Of a stretch of DNA of 64,000 bases, positions 1-53,068 are shown piece by piece. Below the pieces are notes generated by a model. That model was not told the origin of the DNA and did no database searches. It worked only from the letters and a program-made list of their open reading frames with translations. The DNA is from an uncultured virus (IMG/VR IMGVR_UViG_3300025333_000001). Its lineage: Duplodnaviria; Heunggongvirae; Uroviricota; Caudoviricetes; Thumleimavirales; Hafunaviridae. Positions within the stretch are counted from its first letter, which is position 1; every line of letters begins with the position of its first letter. The position numbers and the translations under genes are program-made. The stretch lies in the IMG/VR virus record IMGVR_UViG_3300025333_000001; one strand, given 5' to 3'.

Positions 1-137
1 CCATAGTCGGGTCCCCCCTCTCGGAAGATTTTTGCCACTTCTCTCGCTCCGAGGTGCTGCATGACTTCGTCGGTCAGGTCTTCGGCTCGCTGTCGTCGGG
101 TTTGGGTGTCGTATTTCATGATTTGATATCCGGGTAG

Positions 138-428
138 TTACCGCCACGATTCGCCTTTGTTGCTTTTGCCTTCGATAACATCCACCGATTCGCCATACTC
201 GGTGAGCATCACGGTGTTGTGGCTCGAAGAAGAGGCAACCAACCCCTCGTTATCCCACGTCGCCACGATCTGCCGGGCACGTTGTTGATGGATGCTGGTG
301 TTGTTCTCGGCGACTTGTGTGGACGAAATCTGGATGAACTCGCTGTTTTCGAGCGAGATCTTGAGTCGCTGCCAGAAGTGCTTTTCATCGGGTGCTACCT
401 GTCGTTTTGTCTCGTGTGTTTCGGTCAT
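138..428 (-). CDS. hypothetical protein
   Basis: 96-aa ORF whose start overlaps the stop of 425..736, in a minus-strand run of small ORFs. Confidence 0.6.
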   Translation of the reverse strand: MTETHETKRQVAPDEKHFWQRLKISLENSEFIQISSTQVAENNTSIHQQRARQIVATWDNEGLVASSSSHNTVMLTEYGESVDVIEGKSNKGESWR

Positions 429-736
429 TCGTCCGACTCCGTGATCTCGGTCTGTTTAATCGCCCAATCGATGCCGACCTCTTCGATGATGGAGATGCTG
501 GAATTGCGCCAGAACTTACCATCGGTGACATCGGCGAGGAACTCTTCGAGGTAGCCCACGGGATCATCAACGGCCTGTTGGGGAACCTGATAGAACTCGC
601 TGAGGTCGAACTCGTCGGCTTCGAACACGATGTGTTCATCTTCGCCATCGGGGGTGAGTACCCCCACCGCTCCGTCGTGGTGTTCTTTCAGTTGGCAGTA
701 CGATTTGTCAGCCGTGTCGTAGTAAATTTCTGTCAT
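425..736 (-). CDS. hypothetical acidic protein, tandem paralogue of 733..990
   Basis: MTEIYYD...AIKQTEITESDE shared with the neighbour; DNA nearly identical at both ends. Confidence 0.8.
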   Translation of the reverse strand: MTEIYYDTADKSYCQLKEHHDGAVGVLTPDGEDEHIVFEADEFDLSEFYQVPQQAVDDPVGYLEEFLADVTDGKFWRNSSISIIEEVGIDWAIKQTEITESDE

Positions 737-990
737 TCGTCCGACTCCGTGATCTCGGTCTGTTTAATCGCCCACTCGATGCCGACCCCTTCGAGGTCTT
801 CGAGGTAGCCCACAGGGTCATCAACGGCCTGTGTGGGAACGTAATGGAACTCGCTGCCGTCGAACTCGTCGGCTTCGAACATCATGTATGGATGTTCGCC
901 ATCGGGAGTGAGTACCACCACCGCCCCGTCTTGGCATTCTTTCAGTTGGCAGTACGTTAGATCAACCTTGTCGTAGTAAATTTCTGTCAT
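733..990 (-). CDS. hypothetical acidic protein, tandem paralogue of 425..736
   Basis: Same N- and C-termini; lacks an 18-aa segment present in the paralogue. Confidence 0.8.
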   Translation of the reverse strand: MTEIYYDKVDLTYCQLKECQDGAVVVLTPDGEHPYMMFEADEFDGSEFHYVPTQAVDDPVGYLEDLEGVGIEWAIKQTEITESDE

Positions 991-992
991 TG

Positions 993-1193
993 TCAGATTT
1001 CCTCAATCGAGTAGCCGTCGCCATTGCGCCAGACGTTCGCTTCATCGACTTCAACGTAAGTTGTTGCATCGTACACCGCAATCGTGTATCGCTCGCCAGT
1101 CGCCACCACTTCGCCGGGAACTACTCCCTCCACCGCACCGAGATCAGCCATCACGCTATCCCCTCGCTGGGGGGCGTCTTGCTGGATACTCAT
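993..1193 (-). CDS. small hypothetical protein
   Basis: ATG at 1193 overlaps the upstream stop; acidic composition. Confidence 0.6.
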   Translation of the reverse strand: MSIQQDAPQRGDSVMADLGAVEGVVPGEVVATGERYTIAVYDATTYVEVDEANVWRNGDGYSIEEI

Positions 1194-1456
1194 GCGGTTT
1201 CTCCGTAAAGCGCGACCTTTGCGTTCAACCATTCGACGAGGCCGGCGAAGTTGTGCTCGGTGACGTAGTAGCGTCCACCGAGAACCTCACCGTCTCGACT
1301 TAATTCGATGCTTCCGTTGTCGGTGCGGTTCACCAGAAAGCCACGGTAATTCACGCAGACAAACTTTCCGTCAATGAGACCGGACAACAGGCCGATTTCT
1401 TGTTGGTGGGTCGGTTCGTCAATGTTCGCAACGTCTTCGGGGTTCGTGTAATCCAT
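1190..1456 (-). CDS. hypothetical protein
   Basis: ORF 1190..1516, likely start MDYTNP at 1456. Confidence 0.6.
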   Translation of the reverse strand: MDYTNPEDVANIDEPTHQQEIGLLSGLIDGKFVCVNYRGFLVNRTDNGSIELSRDGEVLGGRYYVTEHNFAGLVEWLNAKVALYGETA

Positions 1457-1549
1457 GTTAGGTTTTGTCCCTTCGGGGGCTGGCCGTCCCACCGTTAGGG
1501 GAACGTGAGGGGTCATTGCCCACCGCCATCGTTTAGCTATCGCCTACAC

Positions 1550-1861
1550 TTAAACCGTTTCGCCAGCAAGCAGTTTCTCGCGGTTGCTTCGCCCGTCTGT
1601 CGTCCCCTCTTCGGGGTCGTAGGAATCGGGTATGTGTCGCCCGTCGTAGTGATCGGTTAACCGCCGACCATCGGCTTCGTCACTGTCGTCGGGGGCGTCA
1701 TCGAGTTCGACATCGTCCACGAATGCCAGTCCCTCTTGCTGGGTCATCGTCGGACCTTCTGCTCGCTCATTGACGTTGCGACTGACAGCCCCCAATGCAG
1801 GGTCTGTGTGGTCCAGCATCTCGCTCCGGTGGTTCCATCCGTCGTTTCGGTCGTCACTCAT
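1550..1861 (-). CDS. hypothetical acidic protein
   Basis: Likely start MSDDRN at 1861, coupled to the stop of 1858..2193. Confidence 0.6.
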   Translation of the reverse strand: MSDDRNDGWNHRSEMLDHTDPALGAVSRNVNERAEGPTMTQQEGLAFVDDVELDDAPDDSDEADGRRLTDHYDGRHIPDSYDPEEGTTDGRSNREKLLAGETV

Positions 1862-2193
1862 AGTTCGTCGTACTCCGATGCAATCGCGCTGTTGATCATG
1901 TCTGCGATCTTTGCGGTGTCTTTGACCTCGGTGTCTTCGAAGAGGGTCGAAGTCGTCCACACGTCAGTATCGACCTGTTCGACAACCTGACCGTTCTCAC
2001 CGAGAATGATAAGCCGGTCGTCGGTGTCTCGCGGCGTTTTGACCACGCAGAATCCGACGTGCCACCGGAATATTTCGCCGATCAGCAGATCACCCACAAT
2101 GCTGGGGTCAATACAGGGGGTAGTAGCTTCATCCATGTCGTCCCACTGGGCCTTAATCTCAGCATCGGCGGCATCGGGCAGGTCGCTACTCAT
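1858..2193 (-). CDS. hypothetical protein, paralogue of 6477..6773
   Basis: Shares GENG..V.TDVWTTS.L..TEVKD.AKIAD.INSAIASE with 6477..6773. Confidence 0.75.
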   Translation of the reverse strand: MSSDLPDAADAEIKAQWDDMDEATTPCIDPSIVGDLLIGEIFRWHVGFCVVKTPRDTDDRLIILGENGQVVEQVDTDVWTTSTLFEDTEVKDTAKIADMINSAIASEYDEL

Positions 2194-2368
2194 CGTCACC
2201 CTCCACGAGGCTGCCGTAGGGAGTCTTCTCTCGTTTCGCGTCGATTTGCGCCTGTTCAATCGCCTCTACCTCATCGTCGTCTAAGCTGTCTTCTACTGTC
2301 GTCATGGTTGTGTCCCGGCATTTGTATCCCGCCCCGGTCTGGCGGAAGTCCTCGCGGGTGAATTGCAC
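2186..2368 (-). CDS. small hypothetical protein
   Basis: 60-aa acidic ORF in the operon. Confidence 0.45.
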   Translation of the reverse strand: MQFTREDFRQTGAGYKCRDTTMTTVEDSLDDDEVEAIEQAQIDAKREKTPYGSLVEGDDE

Positions 2369-2428
2369 ACCCTACGCTAACACGAGGGGGGAACGAAGGA
2401 GGGAGTCAACGGGGGTTAAATGTTTGCT

Positions 2429-3508
2429 CTACAGCCCGACCATGGCTTTTGCTTCGTCAGTGTCCATCCCGTCGTCCTCAACCAATGACATCGCCATTTC
2501 GACCTTTGTGGCCTTGCCAACATCGTCCGTATCGACCGCGGTGGGGACTTCGGGGTCGCCACCGTTAGACTCTTTGGGTTCATCAAAGAAGCCTCCACTG
2601 CCGCCCGTGTTGCCATTCGAGGAGGGCGCCGGTTCCTCATTGCGCTCTTTGGCGCGTTTGAGGGCTTTCTCAAGGGCCGGCACTGCCGTCTTGCGGTTCT
2701 CGGTGGCTTTCTCGGCGTCCAGCATCATGCTAACCATCGCGACATCCGACGACCCCTCAACAGTCTCCATCATCTCATCAATCGTGAGTTCGAGAGGAAC
2801 GGGATACCCCTCAAGGTTGGAATCGATGTAATCCGGCTCGACTCCCATCGCTCGGGCTGTTTCCTCAAGGGGGTTGAGCTGATTTTCGGGAATGGCTGGC
2901 TCGTCTGGGATCTGGGCGATTAGTTCGAGCGCGTCTTCGAGTTCCGACTCGGTGGTCACATAGTGGGGGAGTGCCTTGCCATCGATCACGGGGAACCGGG
3001 GGGTCAGACCCCGCCCGATCTCGTCGGTACTCCCTTCGGGCCATGTCGGTTCGCCATCGCTGTCTTTTGCGACCCCCTCTTGGGCTTCAAGGGCCAGTAG
3101 TTCATCCCCCGTGGCATCGACCGTCTCGATGGTGGGTAGCTCGTTACCGAAGTGGTGGGCGTAACTGTCGTCTTCATGGCCTTCGGAGGGGTTGAACCGA
3201 ATCGATCCCGTCACCTCTTCGCGCTGTCGGGCGCCGATCTTCTGCTTGGCTTCGTAAAGGGCCTTGTAGTACTTGAGTTGAACCGACCGCTTTTCCTCGG
3301 GAATGCCGGACCATGTGGTCGTCTCGTCTTTGTGGGCCTTGAGGAATGCCGCTGCAACGTCTGTCGGGTGGGTCAGTGCGATGTACCAGTCGGAGGTTTC
3401 GTTAGGAATCACGTTCATGGTTGGGGTGTCGTCAGTTTCGTTCGTGTTGTCGTCGCCCGATTCATCGCCGAAAAAGCCGTCTTCTGCTTTGGTATAGCGG
3501 TCTGCCAT
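2429..3508 (-). CDS. hypothetical acidic protein directly downstream of the candidate large ncRNA
   Basis: Long acidic ORF; likely ATG at 3508 (MADRYTK). Confidence 0.8.
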   Translation of the reverse strand: MADRYTKAEDGFFGDESGDDNTNETDDTPTMNVIPNETSDWYIALTHPTDVAAAFLKAHKDETTTWSGIPEEKRSVQLKYYKALYEAKQKIGARQREEVTGSIRFNPSEGHEDDSYAHHFGNELPTIETVDATGDELLALEAQEGVAKDSDGEPTWPEGSTDEIGRGLTPRFPVIDGKALPHYVTTESELEDALELIAQIPDEPAIPENQLNPLEETARAMGVEPDYIDSNLEGYPVPLELTIDEMMETVEGSSDVAMVSMMLDAEKATENRKTAVPALEKALKRAKERNEEPAPSSNGNTGGSGGFFDEPKESNGGDPEVPTAVDTDDVGKATKVEMAMSLVEDDGMDTDEAKAMVGL

Positions 3509-3509
3509 A

Positions 3510-4765
3510 GTTGGTCCCCCAATTCGCGGGGGGTATCGTGTATCCAATGCCGGGGATACAAGCCGGTGTCGGGGGAGTCGCGCGGCTCATACCGGGCGAC
3601 CCCCTCACCGACAGAGTGAATACTGCTGGTGTTTGCAGACTATCATCGCTCGTAAGAACTTCGTGCTGGTTCGTAACGAACCCCCTAAATCGGGGGCCGC
3701 CCTAACAGTCGAAAGGAAGGCTCAATGCTTCCCGGCCCGGTAGGGGCCTAGGCTCCGTTGCGCCATTTGTAAACGGGTTCATGCCGATGCTACATCGTTC
3801 TCAGATGGATTCATCGGTTGTCACCGGGGGCTTAAGGCCCCCTTTTGCGCAGTATCGATCACTCCAATTCGCTCGCTTCCTTCCCCTCGCGGGGGTTTCG
3901 GGCGGGAATCTTCGACGTGTCGATTTCCGTGGCGGGTGAGCTAAGTCTGGTGGTGTCATGGGATTTTGATCGTCGGTCGGCCTTCGTCAGGGTCAATGGT
4001 GCGCAGTCAAAATCCTTTGCACTGCGATTACCCCTTTACAGGGGGGCAACACCTCTCCCTTCCGCGATTCGGTCCAATTCAGTTCTTTCCGGCTGCCATC
4101 TCTTCCTGCTTGCGCTTTCCGATAATGACAGTGAGGTCGCTGGTAGCTATTAGAGTCTCGATTTATCACCCGATTACGGGATTTCGCACCGCATCCCAAC
4201 CGAGTTTCACGATCCCGCCCCCTCTCGGGGTGCAACTGAGGAACACTCAGGGGTCGCTATTCGGGGGTGGAGACTTACTCCCACATCCACGACTGACATC
4301 TTGCCCACGCCATTGTATGACCCCCTTAAAGGGGGCACAGCGTGTCAATGCCGTCGCTTCAGCATGGCCCGAAGGCCGCGACGTGATTAACTCGTGATAC
4401 ATGAGGATTAGGGTCGAACTCGATGGGGGCTGTAAGGGGGCAACCCACCCCATCTTTAGATATTCGGCGGCCATTCACCACATCCCCCGTAGGGGATCTG
4501 ACTGACCGTCCCTCGTTAGCCCCCCTTACGGGATTTCACTGATCAACCTACCGGGGGGCATCTTCTATCGCACGAAGGCGATTTACACGTACCAGCCAAC
4601 CTCAAGGCCCCCCATACCACCCCTGAATCGGGGTAGATCACCGCCCTAAAACGGGGGGTGGGGGGCCTCTCTCTCGTGTGCGGACACACAGACAGAGTGA
4701 GGCAAGCGGACACCGACCCAGTCTAAACAGACCGGGCGTAGCCGCAGCGGGCTACGAGGTGTGAC
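3510..4765 (-). ncRNA. candidate large (~1.25 kb) structured non-coding RNA
   Basis: No credible ORF; continuous hairpins capped by GNRA/UNCG loops only in the minus orientation; TATA-like promoter at 4787-4792. Confidence 0.7.
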
Positions 4766-4785
4766 TTAGACAAAGAGGTGGCTGC

Positions 4786-4805
4786 ACTTAAAGGTTTGGA
4801 TTTCC
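4786..4805 (-). promoter_or_regulatory. archaeal BRE/TATA-type promoter
   Basis: Minus strand reads GGAAATCCAAACCTTTAAGT, about 25 nt upstream of the structured region. Confidence 0.65.
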
Positions 4806-5090
4806 TTAGACTACTACGTAGTAGTAGTCTATAGAGCAGATTCACCAGTCTCAACACTAAATTTAACCGTCTCAAACAGTGGAATTACCCAGTAATACAC
4901 CGAGTAATATCACTGCTTGACTTGCTGATCAAAAGTTACAGACGGCACGCAGCGGCCCTGTATGTACTGTTTACTGTTTAGACGGCGAAAAACCGCCGCT
5001 AAAATGATCTCACAGACAGGCAGCCACCCCCGGTTTGTAACTGGGGGGGTGGGGGGCCTAACCTCGTAGCTGGATCCACGATCCACACCA

Positions 5091-5409
5091 GTGTTGTAAC
5101 TGTGCGGTGCTGTGCTGTGCGGTGCTGTAGTTGCGGTGCTGTGCGGTGCTGTACTGTTGTGTTACTGTAGCAGCACCCTCCCCGAATTACAGCACGAGGG
5201 GTTAAACCTACGGTGTTAACCCCCGGTGTTGTAACTGTGCGGTGCTGTGCGGTGCTGTGCTGTGCGGTGCTGTAGTTGCGGTGCTGTGCGGTGCTGTGCT
5301 GTGCGGTGCTGTAGTTGCGGTGCTGTGCGGTGCTGTAGTTGCGGTGCTGTGCGGTGCTGTACTGTTGTGTTACTGTAGCAGCACCCTCCCCGAATTACAG
5401 CACGAGGGG
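5091..5409. repeat. two tandem copies of an intergenic repeat made of GTGCTGTGCG/GTAGTTGCG microrepeats plus a CCCGAATTACAGCACGAG tail
   Basis: Copies at 5091-5201 and 5226-5409; related to 35735-35895 and 54811-54970. Confidence 0.85.
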
Positions 5410-5757
5410 ATGCACCTCGTGGTTAGACCTCACAGTCTGCACCGTAAGGTGACACCCTCGGTTGTCCCTTTGAGGGACCGGGGTTGTTTGAACCTATGGC
5501 TCAAAACCGACCACTGACCTACCACCAGATTCCAATCAGAGGCTCCAGATAGCGTCACAGGCGCTTTTTCGAACGGTGGTGGTACCTGACACCGTTTGAC
5601 CTCCGAAAAAGCGCCTGACAAGCCTGTGAGCGGCTTTGGCGGTGTGGGTCCGAATCTGACCTACCCACGGTGCAAACTGTGATCGATTACAAGGCCGCAG
5701 CTAGGGTGGGTGGCAACAAGCCAAAAAAAAAAGTCCGACCGGGGTGGCTACGGGGGG

Positions 5758-6480
5758 TTAGTCTTCTGCCGTGGCGAGTGCCTTAGACGACACCATGCCG
5801 TCGTTACGCAGGGCGCGGAATACTGTCTGTTCGGTGTCACTGAGGCGTTCGACCGTCACGTCGTCGGCACTATGCTCGCAACCGTTGCAGAACGGGATAA
5901 GGCCGTCCTTCGTGAGTTTCGCACCCACCGTCTCACCCTCATGCTCGCTGCGATTGAGACACTCTCCCGCAAGGGCGACATAGTCTTCCCCCGTTTCCAG
6001 CAGGCTTCGGACCTGCTTGAAGTCGGTTTCCGATGGGTCAGTTTTGACGCTGGCTCGCAGATCATCCTGTTTGTCCTCGCTAAGGTCCTTGAACGACTCT
6101 GGCTCCGACTGTTCCGGGGTGTCGCCTGACGGATCATCGCCCGGCATGACACCCATGTCGGCGAGGGTGTCGACCATGGGTTCTCTTTTCATGTTTACGA
6201 CACCATGCTCCGCGGCGGCGGATTGGAATCTCGGCCAGTCGTCGGCCGCGATCTTTGCCCACGCGTCGCGGATCTCCGCTTCGCCCTGTTCGGGGGTGTC
6301 GGGGGTGGCTGGTTCGCCCTGTTCGGGGGTGTCGGGGGTGGCTTCGACTGCGCCCCACGTGTGATCCATGGTCGTTCCGTCGTCGAATTCGACCGTGACA
6401 GACACTCCGGTGGGGGTGTCGAAGCTGGCGGCCTTGGCTATGAACTGTGCGACATCGTCGGCTTCGATTTGGTTACTCAT
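5758..6480 (-). CDS. hypothetical acidic protein with a C-terminal Cys/His cluster
   Basis: Start MSNQIEADD at 6480; internal ATPDTPEQGE duplication; ECLNRSEH...FCNGC. Confidence 0.7.
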   Translation of the reverse strand: MSNQIEADDVAQFIAKAASFDTPTGVSVTVEFDDGTTMDHTWGAVEATPDTPEQGEPATPDTPEQGEAEIRDAWAKIAADDWPRFQSAAAEHGVVNMKREPMVDTLADMGVMPGDDPSGDTPEQSEPESFKDLSEDKQDDLRASVKTDPSETDFKQVRSLLETGEDYVALAGECLNRSEHEGETVGAKLTKDGLIPFCNGCEHSADDVTVERLSDTEQTVFRALRNDGMVSSKALATAED

Positions 6481-6773
6481 AGGTCTCCCTCCTCCGATGC
6501 GATCGCGCTGTTGATCGTGTCTGCGATCTTTGCGAGGTCCTTGACCTCGGTCTCCGACAGGGCGGAAGTCGTCCACACGTCAGTATTGACGCGCTTGATA
6601 AGATGGCCGTTCTCGCCGCGGACCAGCAGATCGTCGCCGTCCTTTTCGATCTTGCAAATCACGACTCGCCAGCTATCAAGTTCGCCAGTGAGCAAATCGC
6701 CCACGAGGCTGGGACCGACACTGGGGGTGTTCTCATGCTGTTCGATTTCGTCGGCTTCGATCTGGTTCGACAT
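6477..6773 (-). CDS. hypothetical protein, paralogue of 1858..2193
   Basis: ATG at 6773, about 27 nt below a TTAAGT box (6800-6805, minus strand), consistent with a leaderless transcript. Confidence 0.75.
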   Translation of the reverse strand: MSNQIEADEIEQHENTPSVGPSLVGDLLTGELDSWRVVICKIEKDGDDLLVRGENGHLIKRVNTDVWTTSALSETEVKDLAKIADTINSAIASEEGDL

Positions 6774-6994
6774 TGCGATTGGAGCAACGGGTTGGCTTGA
6801 CTTAAGGCTTGGGGTGCCCAAAACCGCAAGACGGCGCGGGGTTCACCGGCTCAGAAGGGGCTATACCAATACCCGCGCGTTGCAACGCGTGCGGAAAGGG
6901 AGACCGATACAAACCCCCCCAAAACACTACCACGCACCCCCCGCTGCGGGCCGTCTTCGATCATCGACACACCCCTCAAACCGACTGTGGGCAC

Positions 6995-7119
6995 CCCCAG
7001 TTTGAGCCACCCCAGACACCCCAGTTTGAGCCACCCCAGACACCCCAGTTTGGCCCACCCCAGACACCCCAGTTTGAGCCACCCCAGACACCCCAGTTTG
7101 GACCACCCCAGACACCCCA
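6995..7119. repeat. 24-bp tandem repeat, 5 copies
   Basis: CCCCAGTTTG(AG/GC/GA)CCACCCCAGACA at 6995, 7019, 7043, 7067 and 7091. Confidence 0.95.
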
Positions 7120-7987
7120 CGGGGGGGTTGTGATCGTGTTACTTTCCCCCCCACCCCCACCCCCCACACGGAACCCATATTTTTACACCATGGATACTGA
7201 CACACACACCCCCCACCATGGCACCCCCCACCGAGGGTGCCCCACCCACCCCCCACCATGGCACCGAGGGTGCCCCACCCACCCTCTAGATCCCCGAGGT
7301 GCCACCAAGGGCACCCCCCACCCACCCTTTCCGCATGCCTGCGCAATCAATGGGTGCCCCCCTCGGTGTGCTGCTACCTCCGGTTTGAGCCAATGACAGC
7401 GATTCGATGAGGCCGCCGAACACAGCAGGCTAACTCCGAGCAAGTCGGGGGGTGGGGGGAGGGGGGGAGACTCCCGGTGATCACCCAGTCAAAACCCACA
7501 GAAGGCAGAGGGTTGGAACACCAATCGGGCAGGCGGGCGCGCGATTTTGGTAAGTCACCCCCCGTTCTGATGCCCAAATCCGAAACATTTTGCCCAAATC
7601 GGGCCAAACCGGGGGTAACAACCGGGGGTAACATCTCTGAACAACAACTTTCGGCAAAAAATATCAGTTAGCCCCCAGTGGGTGGTTCCCATGTCGTGCT
7701 AACTCTCAAATTCCGACCCCCCAAGGTCGAAAGTGGGGGTGCAAATTCCACGAACCCCGACTCGGCGGACATCCACCGGGTGACTGACGGGGAAAACTCA
7801 AGTTCGCGCCCCAGTTGACATTCTGCGCGGCAATGCGATGAGGCCGTCGGTTTCGTCGGCAAATACCAATCTTAAAAAATTTTGAGCAACATTTTCGACG
7901 GGTTTAAGGGGTTTGGACCCAATATCGCGCGCTTTTCTCCCCCGTGAGGGTAAACATGGGGTTGAAACACCGGGCTACCCCCCTCCC

Positions 7988-8013
7988 TATATAAACCGTC
8001 TACCTTTCATAGT
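7988..8013 (+). promoter_or_regulatory. putative late promoter
   Basis: TATATAAACCGtcTACCTTTCATAGT; 24/26 identical to 26787-26812. Confidence 0.7.
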
Positions 8014-8199: not shown

Positions 8200-9090
8200 A
8201 TGGCAGCCGGAGAATTAACGGGAGCGACCGCCGAGGAGCTACCCGCAATGAAAGAGCGGCACGAAGACGCAAGGCTCTACAACCGGAACGCCATCGAGTT
8301 CGAGGTCGCGTTTTGCCTCAGACGGATTGGCAAGCAACCAGACGACTACGACGGACCCGACCGGTTTTGCAAACGGTACGCGGCCCGGCTGACACGCGAA
8401 GAGTGGGAAAACCGGTACGATGACGAGTTTCCCACCACGAAAGGCCATGACAGTTTTGACGAGCGGGCCTACCACACTCAGTGTCAGTTCCACGGGCGCA
8501 GCGGAAACCCGAACGTCCACGACAACGTCGACGTGGGCTTCACGAATTTAAAACACGGTATGTACGCAGAAAATTGGCGACTCGCAGAGGATTTCTCGGA
8601 GGCAGACGCTGCCATGTTCGATTACATCCTCAGTTGGGCTGACATTTACGGCTGGCCCGACCGCGAGACAGATCCGGGACGGTACGACCTGCTCGAACAG
8701 TTCGCCTACGACCGGGTGCGATCACTTCGGGCCGAGGAGTACTTCGAGGAGATAGCCGCAGAGAACGACGGACAGTCCGAGATCGAATATCGGGATGTCC
8801 GCGACGACGAGGGTGTTGTCGTGGGCGAAGTTCCCGTGCCGAACACACTCGGCGAAGACCTACGGCTGCTCCGCAAGGACATGCGGGACCAGATGAAGGA
8901 ACTGGGCCTCACGCCCAAGTCCCGCGGCAAGATGGACGCGCTGGAAGAGCAGGCGTCGGCTCACGAAGCAATCGGCCAGTTGGCTGACGAAGCCCTGAAA
9001 GGCGACCATGAGTATGACCCGACGAGCTTTTCTGACGGTGATGGCGACGAGTCGGAACTCGATGAGGCGGGGACAGAGGTGGAGGACTGA
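8200..9090 (+). CDS. putative terminase small subunit
   Basis: Upstream of the large terminase; ELGLTPKSR resembles the P27-type TerS C-terminal motif. Confidence 0.65.
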   Translation: MAAGELTGATAEELPAMKERHEDARLYNRNAIEFEVAFCLRRIGKQPDDYDGPDRFCKRYAARLTREEWENRYDDEFPTTKGHDSFDERAYHTQCQFHGRSGNPNVHDNVDVGFTNLKHGMYAENWRLAEDFSEADAAMFDYILSWADIYGWPDRETDPGRYDLLEQFAYDRVRSLRAEEYFEEIAAENDGQSEIEYRDVRDDEGVVVGEVPVPNTLGEDLRLLRKDMRDQMKELGLTPKSRGKMDALEEQASAHEAIGQLADEALKGDHEYDPTSFSDGDGDESELDEAGTEVED

Positions 9091-51787: not shown

Positions 51788-51860
51788 TAGTTCCACGCGG
51801 ATTCGAACCGCGGTCGTTTGGCCCAAAACCAAACAGGATTGCCCGCTACCCCATGGAACT
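51788..51860 (-). tRNA. tRNA-Gln(UUG)
   Basis: Full cloverleaf; anticodon arm TTTGG-TTTTGGG-CCAAA; TTCGAAT T-loop. Confidence 0.9.
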
Positions 51861-51947
51861 AACCGAAGCTGTGCGCTCTATAGATGCCCGGCAGAAGCCC
51901 ACGGTGGCAACGTGGCAACTAACCGTTTCTGCGCAACGCACAGCTAA

Positions 51948-52020
51948 TAGTCCCACTTGGATTCGAACCAAGGTCGTCTGCCCCAAAAGCAGACAGGATT
52001 GGCCGCTACCCCATGGGACT
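51948..52020 (-). tRNA. tRNA-Gln(UUG), second copy
   Basis: Cloverleaf; anticodon arm TCTGC-TTTTGGG-GCAGA. Confidence 0.9.
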
Positions 52021-52058
52021 GCCGTGACGACGGCTCTCTCAGAGGTTGTGGTTATCTT

Positions 52059-52544
52059 TTATTTATCATCTTGAGTCCGAATTGATTGAACGACTCCGAA
52101 GCCACTCAATACCTCTGTTAATTCGTCGCTTGGCTCACCTATCACAAACATGTGACTTGCAAATGGGGCTGACGAATTTCCTTCGCCGAAAGACAATCTC
52201 TGATCAATGAAGCACACGAACGATGCGTGTTCATACAAATCGTGCCACCAATTCGTCGATGAGTCCCCCTTTACAAGGAAGATAATCAGTTCAACATCAT
52301 CTTTCGAGGACTCCGAGATCCCCTTATTGACCCACTTGTCTGGTTCCGAGTAAGGTGGATTACAGTAGACCGTACCAAACCACGGATTCGCTAAACCATC
52401 ATCTTCTATAGTGTATCGTTCATCTGCGATTGGGATTTTCTCAGCTCCTGAACAGGGATCAAGATCAACTCCGTTGGTTCCCTTGTTGATTCTCTTGGCC
52501 ACCCATCGAGGTGTCGCATATTCATTTGAGGAATTCTTAGCCAT
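52059..52544 (-). CDS. phage-type DNA N6-adenine methyltransferase
   Basis: YATP, DLDPC, DGL..PW, NPPYS. Confidence 0.85.
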   Translation of the reverse strand: MAKNSSNEYATPRWVAKRINKGTNGVDLDPCSGAEKIPIADERYTIEDDGLANPWFGTVYCNPPYSEPDKWVNKGISESSKDDVELIIFLVKGDSSTNWWHDLYEHASFVCFIDQRLSFGEGNSSAPFASHMFVIGEPSDELTEVLSGFGVVQSIRTQDDK

Positions 52545-52597
52545 AATTGGTCCTTTGAGTCGTCTCGCTCGTTGTGATGCGGTGAGCTACCCCGCGA

Positions 52598-52670
52598 AGA
52601 TCAGGGCCGGATTCGAACCGGCGTCTGTACGGATCTGCAATCCGTTGCGTAACCACTCGGCCACCTGATC
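52598..52670 (-). tRNA. tRNA-Cys(GCA)
   Basis: Cloverleaf; anticodon arm ACGGA-TTGCAGA-TCCGT. Confidence 0.9.
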
Positions 52671-52973
52671 GAACGGAATGAAGCGGGAGTGCGGTCAATG
52701 GGATGTTTCATCACGGTCAACAACGAGTTTTCATGGTTGACTTACTCGGTAGTGTAATCATAATGTCGTTCATATTGTTCTAACATCTGTGAGTGTCGTT
52801 ATTCTTACGGCCCCTTACCTCCGTTGGCTACAGCCCGCTCTAACGGGGGCACACCGACGCGGAGTTCCGGTTAGCACTCGCTCTGATGGTATCGGGTAAT
52901 AGTTGTTTTACGTCCCACGGAGGGGGTTGACCACCCCACTATCCGATCAAGGGTAATTCACTCGTGAGACGAA

Positions 52974-53068
52974 TGGTTCCAGTGGGATTTGAACCCACGT
53001 TGCATGTCAGAGTAGGTTGCTCCTACCCGTGCTACGGAAGCGTGTTGTCCGTGCTACACTATGGAACC
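52974..53068 (-). ncRNA. tRNA-like RNA with an aberrant anticodon/variable region
   Basis: Perfect acceptor, D and T arms; the central ~42 nt do not form a normal anticodon arm. Confidence 0.7.

Follow-up and report, generated by a model that had tools for sequence, protein, structure and literature searches.

A giant structured RNA, very probably of a new family, near the head of the leftward gene block of Mincapvirus-type haloarchaeal viruses

The stretch of 64,000 nucleotides (nt) analysed here (IMG/VR record IMGVR_UViG_3300025333_000001, hereafter the window) comes from an uncultured tailed virus of haloarchaea, a relative of the genus Mincapvirus in the family Hafunaviridae. Between positions 3510 and 4765 it carries a segment with no credible open reading frame (ORF), for which an initial annotation had proposed a large, structured and as yet unclassified RNA read from the minus strand. 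Our analysis supports such an RNA, driven by a promoter at about 4790 and reaching to the ORF at 3508, by its conservation, the covariation of its helices, the conservation of its promoter and the lack of any Rfam match. It is very probably a real, conserved and very large structured RNA of a family not described before, a conclusion that is supported by covariation, conservation, promoter, non-coding character and presence in RNA libraries. For the whole picture, mechanism included, we favour on balance a giant RNA that acts as RNA in Mincapvirus-type haloarchaeal myoviruses.

The genes of the window read leftward from 1 to 6576 and the structural genes rightward from 8200, where the small terminase subunit is encoded (ORF 8200-9090). 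Given this leftward transcription, the gene-free stretch lies near the head of a leftward, presumably early, gene block. It is flanked by an ORF of 359 amino acids (aa) with its ATG at 3508 and, on the far side, by an ORF of 272 aa (5758-6576), both on the minus strand, so that the genes on both flanks share the strand proposed for the RNA. Since no long ORF was found between these two, the ORF-free stretch extends over 3509-5757 and is larger than first reported.

Homologues were searched by pattern scans and then confirmed with nhmmer, which accepted 7/19, 8/54, 7/16 (metagenomes) and 8/8 of the loci found. Chance pattern matches were discarded (12/19, 46/54, 9/16 and 5/5 loci), and 14 of these (9 from metagenomes and 5 from species-representative genomes) were checked and gave no nhmmer hit at E <= 1. 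None of the 5 pattern loci in the species-representative genomes was homologous, and thus no provirus copy was found there by that exact pattern. A blastn search of the phage collection with one of the clade F copies also gave no match. The confirmed homologues lie at the equivalent position in six isolated Mincapvirus-type viruses (HSTV-2, HRTV-2, HRTV-7, HRTV-11, HCTV-6 and HCTV-15) and in some ten lineages known from uncultured viruses or metagenomes, and several relatives of the window at 93-100% identity were also recovered. In total they make up about 12 well-separated lineages in six clades, with a between-clade identity of 43-62% that includes invariant blocks, whereas the identity of the neighbouring protein is just 21-49%. 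The equivalent gap of the Mincapviruses shows ~60% identity to the stretch of the window, with long invariant blocks, and this alignment is better than that of the neighbouring protein gene. The length of the RNA is ~1.25 kb in the window and 0.9-1.1 kb in relatives.

The initial annotation had proposed that homologues be collected and covariation tested. Homologues were found, and their RNAalifold structure shows covariation. The alignment comprised 17 sequences and yielded 151 pairs in 33 helices; duplicates had been left out of it beforehand (HRTV-2 and HRTV-7, which equal HSTV-2, L092, which equals the window, and L083, which equals L020), as had L082 and L087 (partial). Standard pairs occupied 87.5% of the cells (151 pairs in 17 sequences), against 37.5-45.8% when the partners were slid. 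Changes on both sides of the pair were seen in 91 of the 151 pairs and in 368 cells, against 63-96 in the slid controls, and they include helices linking sites 300-400 nt apart. None of 500 shuffles reached any of the five measures. A separate comparison was made across clades: the 8 sequences of clades A, B and C supplied a structure of 251 pairs, which was then scored in the 8 sequences of clades D, E and F. There 63.7% of the cells were paired, against 36-43% with slid and 38.7 +/- 2.3% with permuted partners, and 232 double changes were counted against a control mean of 106 and a maximum of 141. Within the clade of the window the change per site was 0.014 at paired and 0.045 at unpaired positions, that is about three times slower when paired, and the pair was retained in 13 of the 17 substitutions at paired sites. 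The stretch therefore has what is expected of a large ornate structured RNA, namely more than 400 nt, non-coding character and covarying helices in diverged homologues. Its predicted parts, given from 5' to 3' of the RNA, are as follows.

4576..4765, minus strand: variable 5' segment, with hairpins 4736-4717 and 4695-4670 (UCCG loop) and an optional 64-nt hairpin 4668-4605
4405..4575, minus strand: conserved 5' domain in the form of a multi-helix junction (70.8-99% of cells paired in helices 2-8)
4559-4553/4525-4519, 4513-4510/4413-4410 and 4508-4503/4473-4468, minus strand: helices of the 5' domain
4494-4492/4487-4485 (UACG loop), 4466-4463/4418-4415 and 4454-4448/4428-4422, minus strand: further helices of the 5' domain
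4382-4370/3986-3972, minus strand: long-range helix of GUCGCGGYC with GRCCGMCGAC (helix 10, 13 pairs, 99.1% of cells paired)
4369-3987, minus strand: lineage-variable central region inside helix 10, with GAGA, GUAA and other hairpins
3636..3949, minus strand: conserved 3' domain, closed by helix 3949-3944/3641-3636
3940-3938/3651-3648, 3934-3930/3765-3761 and 3756-3753/3658-3655, minus strand: inner helices of the 3' domain
3922-3856, minus strand: long arm of the 3' domain, capped by the GCGA loop 3890-3887
3516..3613, minus strand: 3' tail, beginning with hairpin 3613-3567 (helices 3613-3608/3572-3567 and 3604-3594/3584-3573)
3560-3554/3545-3539 and 3530-3526/3520-3516, minus strand: second and terminal hairpins of the 3' tail, followed by GGGAC(AC)AAC and the start codon

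The first ~190 nt of the RNA (4576-4765) are variable and align poorly between clades (alifold energy -4.5); the inverted repeat I4 was found in this segment, and its stem 4736-4717 shows a double change from U-A to C-G in L086 and L091. In the 5' domain both-side changes were found in 7/7 pairs of helix 8, and the invariant blocks are GCCGCCGAAUAYCUAAA and AGUUCGACCC. The Y/R position of helix 10 is C-G in 8 sequences, U-A in 7 and U-G in 1, and the central region that this helix encloses is far shorter in L002. In the 3' domain the closing helix (helix 19) is 100% paired with 5/6 pairs changed on both sides, helix 27 (3756-3753/3658-3655) is 100% paired with 3/4 pairs changed on both sides and an invariant G-U, and helices 23-25 are 85-93% paired; the invariant blocks here are CACGGAAA, GAAG, ACAAAUGGCGCAACGG and CUUACG-GCGAUGA. 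Helices 29-33 of the 3' tail are 81-94% paired, with both-side changes in 9/11 pairs of helix 30 and 7/7 of helix 32. A covariance model of the tail (R1) recovers 3509-3623 of the minus strand with 85 bits, a match by construction, and it added little, its automatic structure being poor (15 pairs).

The GC-rich 64-nt hairpin of the 5' segment is present only in the window and in the identical L092, and is absent from L086, L088 and L091 (relatives at 93-98%) and from an RNA-library contig, in which 4606 is joined to 4675. From its distribution it appears to behave like an expansion segment.

The promoter was well conserved. The element resembling a transcription factor B recognition element (BRE) and a TATA box that had been claimed at 4786-4805 is real, and a palindrome lies just upstream of it.

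4787..4799, minus strand: archaeal promoter CCAAAC-C-TTTAAG, with BRE-like CCAAAC at 4799-4794 and TATA-like TTTAAG at 4792-4787
4807..4831, no strand: perfect palindrome with 11-nt arms and a 3-nt spacer (I3)

Haloarchaeal promoters consist of a BRE-like purine-rich element directly before a TATA-like hexamer. A pattern scan of 13 sequences found such a promoter (CGACAG/CGATAG/CCAAAC-N1-3-TTTAWG or TATAWR) in 12 of them, upstream of the core at a distance of 137-227 nt, and the thirteenth, L088, has the variant GCAAAACTATAAG at the equivalent place, found by eye. Both elements thus occur at a conserved position, as a promoter predicted from sequence. The usual archaeal spacing between TATA box and start site would put the start of the RNA near 4765-4760. 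At the other end the conserved part closes with a covarying hairpin and GGGAC(AC)AAC, 7-15 nt short of the ATG that opens the next ORF. Between this last hairpin and the ORF neither an oligo-T run nor a promoter-like element was found (a TATA-like element being absent in most lineages), so that read-through into the ORF is likely and co-transcription of the RNA with the 359-aa ORF is plausible. We infer both ends of the RNA in this way. The palindrome at 4807-4831 is shorter in close relatives, and the Mincapviruses have a different palindrome with 12-nt arms at the same relative place; it may be a candidate operator for a dimeric, virus-specific regulator.

The claim that this 1.25 kb holds no acidic, halophile-like ORF was borne out. 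The small frames of the gene-free stretch (52, 80, 75 and 56 aa on the minus strand of the window) are basic and rich in P/R/G/S, whereas the flanking proteins are acidic. Between the window and its relatives at 93-98% identity there are 18 indels of 1, 2, 4 or 5 nt and only 2 of 3 nt, scattered at sites near 4585, 4559, 4519, 4451, 4335, 4172, 4136, 4093, 4046, 3847, 3797, 3701 and 3673, and every small frame is therefore broken. A conserved coding frame, which the initial annotation had named among the observations that would speak against an RNA, was not found, nor was an acidic composition of the frames.

Contigs from RNA libraries also cover the stretch. Two metatranscriptome runs of one study gave contigs of 582 nt (3804-4384) and 1007 nt (3696-4606, then 4675-4737), together with contigs on late genes (8.1-12 kb). 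Over 1-3600 these runs yielded no contigs and over 4800-8000 hardly any, with slight depth over 4801-5600 in X24. The idea that the RNA is separate from the downstream mRNA, or commoner than it, could be read from this absence of cover and was set aside, as gaps prove nothing. The transcriptome of HRTV-DL1 was also set aside as a comparison because this virus belongs to a different family.

The strand of the RNA was addressed by its loops and base composition. In 3510-4765 there are 14 tetraloop hairpins with Watson-Crick stems of at least 4 bp, and GNRA or UNCG loops are formed by 7 of them on the minus strand and by none on the plus strand, as had been claimed for the plus-strand loops. Elsewhere in the window 287 hairpins of this kind occur, and stable loops are formed by 21 of them on the plus strand and by 17 on the minus strand, or 6.6% per strand; the probability of at least 7 stable minus-strand loops in 14 is about 1.3e-5. 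Nine stable minus-strand loops had been listed before. GCGA 3887-90, GUAA 4036-39, GAGA 4223-26, UUCG 4370-73, UACG 4488-91 and UCCG 4681-84 were confirmed; GCAA 4110-13 (closed by 2 Watson-Crick pairs), GUAA 4526-29 (by 3) and UUCG 4573-76 (within a hexaloop) are weaker, and GGGA 3515-18 was missing from that list. Homologous hairpin loops are of the GNRA or UNCG type 19 times in the sense and 3 times in the antisense direction, and the G[A/C]GA loop found at 3890-3887 in the window occurs in 11 of 12 lineages. Unpaired positions of structured RNAs are typically rich in adenosine. Here A/(A+U) is 0.63 at unpaired positions, and the conserved unpaired columns comprise 38 A, 16 G, 13 C and 8 U. 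Counts of T-runs and A-runs give a slight hint of strand at most. The z-scores of the minimum free energy (MFE) in 150-nt windows are about -0.2 to -2.8 over 3450-4650, the sole positive value being +0.65 on the minus strand at 4051-4200, and -3 to -5 over 4576-4950, while flanking coding DNA is mostly at about -1.4 to +2.5. The strand is the weakest part of the structural case; the promoter, the A-rich unpaired positions, the sense loop motifs and the orientation of the flanking genes make the minus strand quite likely to be the functional one.

A second giant folded RNA, unrelated in sequence, appears to exist in the HF1/HF2-type viruses (genus Haloferacalesvirus). These have 1.66 kb without annotation between the terminal repeat and the first early gene (HF2, L105:307-1969), 72-90% conserved in 41 phage records. 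In 10 sequences (L105, L109-L117) RNAalifold gave 476 pairs with 93.4% pairing, against 36-45% with slid partners, and 178 double-change cells against 28-49, as counted with a custom script on the alignment that also gave the structure. This stretch resembles the RNA of the window in its equivalent genome position, in having the sense of the first early gene, in being strongly structured and in a similar GACACNCAAC motif before the ATG. It differs in being longer and in the gene that follows, the first protein of HF2 not being homologous to the 359-aa protein, and no sequence similarity between the two RNAs was found by nhmmer (best E = 1) or with the covariance model R1. Giant folded RNAs ahead of the early genes thus appear to be a feature of both the Mincapvirus-type and the HF2-type genus.

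The protein encoded directly after the RNA is also conserved.

2429..3508, minus strand: acidic protein of 359 aa (phrog_32210, function unknown), the first ORF after the RNA

It matches 8 phage records representing 6 viruses (HRTV-2, HRTV-7, HRTV-11, HSTV-2, HCTV-6 and HCTV-15) at 40-43% identity and has 11 relatives in a large protein collection, and no Pfam family was assigned to it. Its AlphaFold2 model is mediocre (mean predicted local distance difference test score, pLDDT, of 64.8), and a Foldseek search of the PDB with this model gave no match at E <= 0.001. Co-occurrence with the RNA had been proposed as a check, and this ORF is a kept neighbour in 10/10 testable lineages: the homologous ORF stands directly after the RNA in 9 of them and ~1 kb further in L036, behind an inserted ORF. 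L059 is outside this count, its contig ending there. Their conserved neighbourhood makes the protein the first candidate for a partner of the RNA. Near the N-terminus the protein and its homologues share a short FFG/FFD motif followed by acidic residues, which in the subgroup of the window recurs before the C-terminal helices; it may serve as a short site for the docking of a host factor.

We infer the stability, partner and biological role of the RNA as follows. The host RNA polymerase would initiate at the conserved BRE/TATA promoter, where the leftward early block begins. The first 1.1-1.25 kb of the transcript would then adopt a compact multi-domain fold, to which the conserved, covarying pairing points, in the order of the variable 5' segment, the 5' junction domain, the long-range helix around the variable centre, the 3' domain closed by a second long-range helix, and three terminal hairpins, the conserved RNA presumably stopping just short of the start codon of the conserved acidic protein. 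It may stay as the leader of the early mRNA or may be cut off from it. It would act as RNA, as a stable scaffold or the core of a ribonucleoprotein made at the onset of infection, and the conserved A-rich unpaired blocks would make tertiary contacts or bind a viral or host partner, the first candidate for which may be the adjacent acidic 359-aa protein.

Several observations weigh against this interpretation. The 359-aa protein has no RNA-binding domain recognisable by Pfam or fold match. The 151-pair structure was counted on the alignment from which it was derived, an objection that the cross-clade comparison answers only in part, and 11 of the 33 helices are less than 80% paired, mostly in lineage-variable parts. 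Well-separated lineages number only ~12, the alignment of the variable parts is poor, and a single study supplied the RNA contigs, which do not give strand, ends or level. As to the strand, the earlier argument that G-U pairs favour minus was not upheld, since the pairs predicted on both strands give just 62 G-U against 43 A-C cells, which does not decide it. The minus strand is not favoured by the folding energies (alifold, -233.5 vs -213.2), and the single-sequence MFE is lower for the antisense in 10 of 17 sequences. Moreover the asymmetry of the tetraloops is strong only in the clade of the window, the Mincapviruses having 1 in the sense and 3 in the antisense direction.

These energies, equal or lower on the plus strand in those 10 of 17 sequences, are what an antisense RNA running from 3510 to 4765 would have in its favour, together with 200 G-U cells in pairs predicted on the plus strand alone and with the long counter-transcripts described for HF2 in the accessible text of PMC8707807. 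The conserved promoter faces the opposite direction, however, the conserved unpaired columns would turn U-rich (38 U vs 8 A), the near-universal GAGA loop would become UCUC and the start would fall within the coding sequence of the 359-aa ORF, so that we hold a functional plus strand to be improbable. Still less credible is a DNA element, such as a replication origin or a packaging or terminus-related site, with incidental hairpins: the stretch is a few kb from the genome terminus in Mincapvirus records and adjoins iteron-like 10-nt tandem repeats (5093-5378), but the compensatory changes preserve helices across 300-400 nt, which double-stranded DNA does not need, and the promoter, the base bias of the unpaired positions and the contigs in RNA libraries also speak against it. 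Least of all do we believe in a series of small genes on the strand of the RNA that would code for proteins of 47-85 aa. The records of HRTV-2, HRTV-11 and HCTV-6 (L004, L001 and L007) do list 4-5 small hypothetical coding sequences of that size across the homologous stretch, and the window has its four frames. The records of HSTV-2 and HRTV-7, in contrast, annotate one 144-nt ORF only, and the proline- and arginine-rich basic frames in a virus with acidic proteins, their interruption by 1-nt indels among close relatives and substitutions governed by base pairing all argue against them; the 4-5 annotated small basic proteins are probably not genes.

A giant leader that acts only in cis, with no action in trans, could control the following early operon through translation start of the leadered mRNA, transcript stability or read-through of terminators by the polymerase. 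The RNA indeed stops only 7-15 nt short of the start codon, and the interval lacks any promoter-like or oligo-T element; its terminal hairpin and GGGACACAAC motif are retained even before the different ORF of L036, a similar GUGACACCCAAC lies ahead of the first gene of HF2, and the RNA stands directly after an early promoter, a position also taken by the put RNAs of phage HK022. Nevertheless a length of 1.1-1.25 kb, domain-closing long-range helices and many invariant unpaired blocks far exceed the needs of known leaders of this type, and the constraint extends over the whole length, beyond the 3' end alone. We therefore prefer a stable scaffold or ribonucleoprotein core, to which we give about an even chance, and regard a purely cis-acting leader as possible though rather doubtful. 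More speculative again is an active RNA machine, self-assembling or catalytic, which would form a particle with the acidic protein within minutes of the onset of infection and take over or disarm the host; if this were true, the giant early RNA would, with the HF2-type RNA, be a hallmark of a whole family of archaeal viruses.

To our knowledge only a handful of RNA classes of more than 500 nt with conserved three-dimensional architecture are known, and none from an archaeal virus. The RNA described here has cross-clade covariation, a defined promoter and a fixed genomic context, and as cultured viruses of Halorubrum and Haloarcula carry it, its transcript and fold, its partners and the effect of a knockout are open to direct testing. 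It also corrects the public annotations that place 4-5 hypothetical small proteins over it. The different folded RNA at the same place in a sister genus suggests that a giant RNA is generally required, for reasons not yet explained, at the start of hafunavirus early transcription.

Some features of the surrounding DNA are worth recording. Between the promoter of the RNA and the upstream gene the window has two blocks of ~10-nt tandem repeats of the TGCGGTGCTG type (5093-5378, 14 register copies), flanked by inverted repeats at 5187-5234; these are iteron-like and may be an origin or a terminus-related element. In the DNA run X1 one contig joins 5388 to 8146, omitting 2757 bases and with 13 other letters at the joint, which may be a variant genome without the region of the 272-aa gene, or may mark the junction at a terminus or within a concatemer. 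The minus strand also has four tRNA genes at 51788-53068 (51.8-53.1 kb), far from the folded RNA.

No description of this RNA was found in the accessible text of the open literature, including PMC8651126, PMC8707807, PMC7230728, PMC3950731 and PMC10544981; papers in subscription journals, among them the original HF2 and HSTV-2 genome papers, lie outside this statement. Comparison with Rfam had also been proposed by the initial annotation. With cmscan against Rfam 15 at the gathering score only the 4 tRNAs were found in the window, and at E <= 10 the region 3300-5900 gave 2 weak matches, both outside 3510-4765. The RNA therefore matches no Rfam 15 family, including GOLLD, ROOL, OLE, HEARO, RNase P, group I/II introns, tmRNA and SRP RNA, and ARAGORN found 0 tRNA or tmRNA genes in 3300-5900. 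By eye only, the invariant AGUUCGACCC block resembles the T-loop consensus.

Three known kinds of RNA invite comparison, one in character, one in gene arrangement and one in position, though the likeness to none of them amounts to membership of its family. GOLLD and ROOL are non-coding RNAs of more than 500 nt with many covariation-supported helices, often found in bacteriophages and prophages; their function is unknown, and they are reported to self-assemble into cages. The halovirus RNA resembles them as a very large, many-helix, covariation-supported RNA of tailed viruses. It differs from them in giving no match at E <= 10, in the host domain, that of an archaeal virus, in being about twice as long and in its fixed place at the head of an early operon, directly before a conserved ORF and not beside tRNA genes. 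The HEARO or omega RNA of IscB is likewise a structured RNA directly upstream of a conserved ORF and probably co-transcribed with it, an arrangement that makes a partner protein plausible here. However the RNA has no HEARO match and is three to five times longer, and its neighbour (PHROG 32210, no Pfam family) has no HNH, RuvC or other Pfam domain, so that no adjacent IscB-type nuclease or other RNA-guided protein was found. The put RNAs of phage HK022 (~70 nt) and the EAR-type leaders (~120 nt) are cis-acting antitermination RNAs just after early promoters, with two hairpins, which act on bacterial RNA polymerase, and we know of no archaeal counterpart of them. The RNA of these haloviruses shares with them its placement right behind an early promoter, where a long operon begins, but it is more than 1 kb long and has closed domains.

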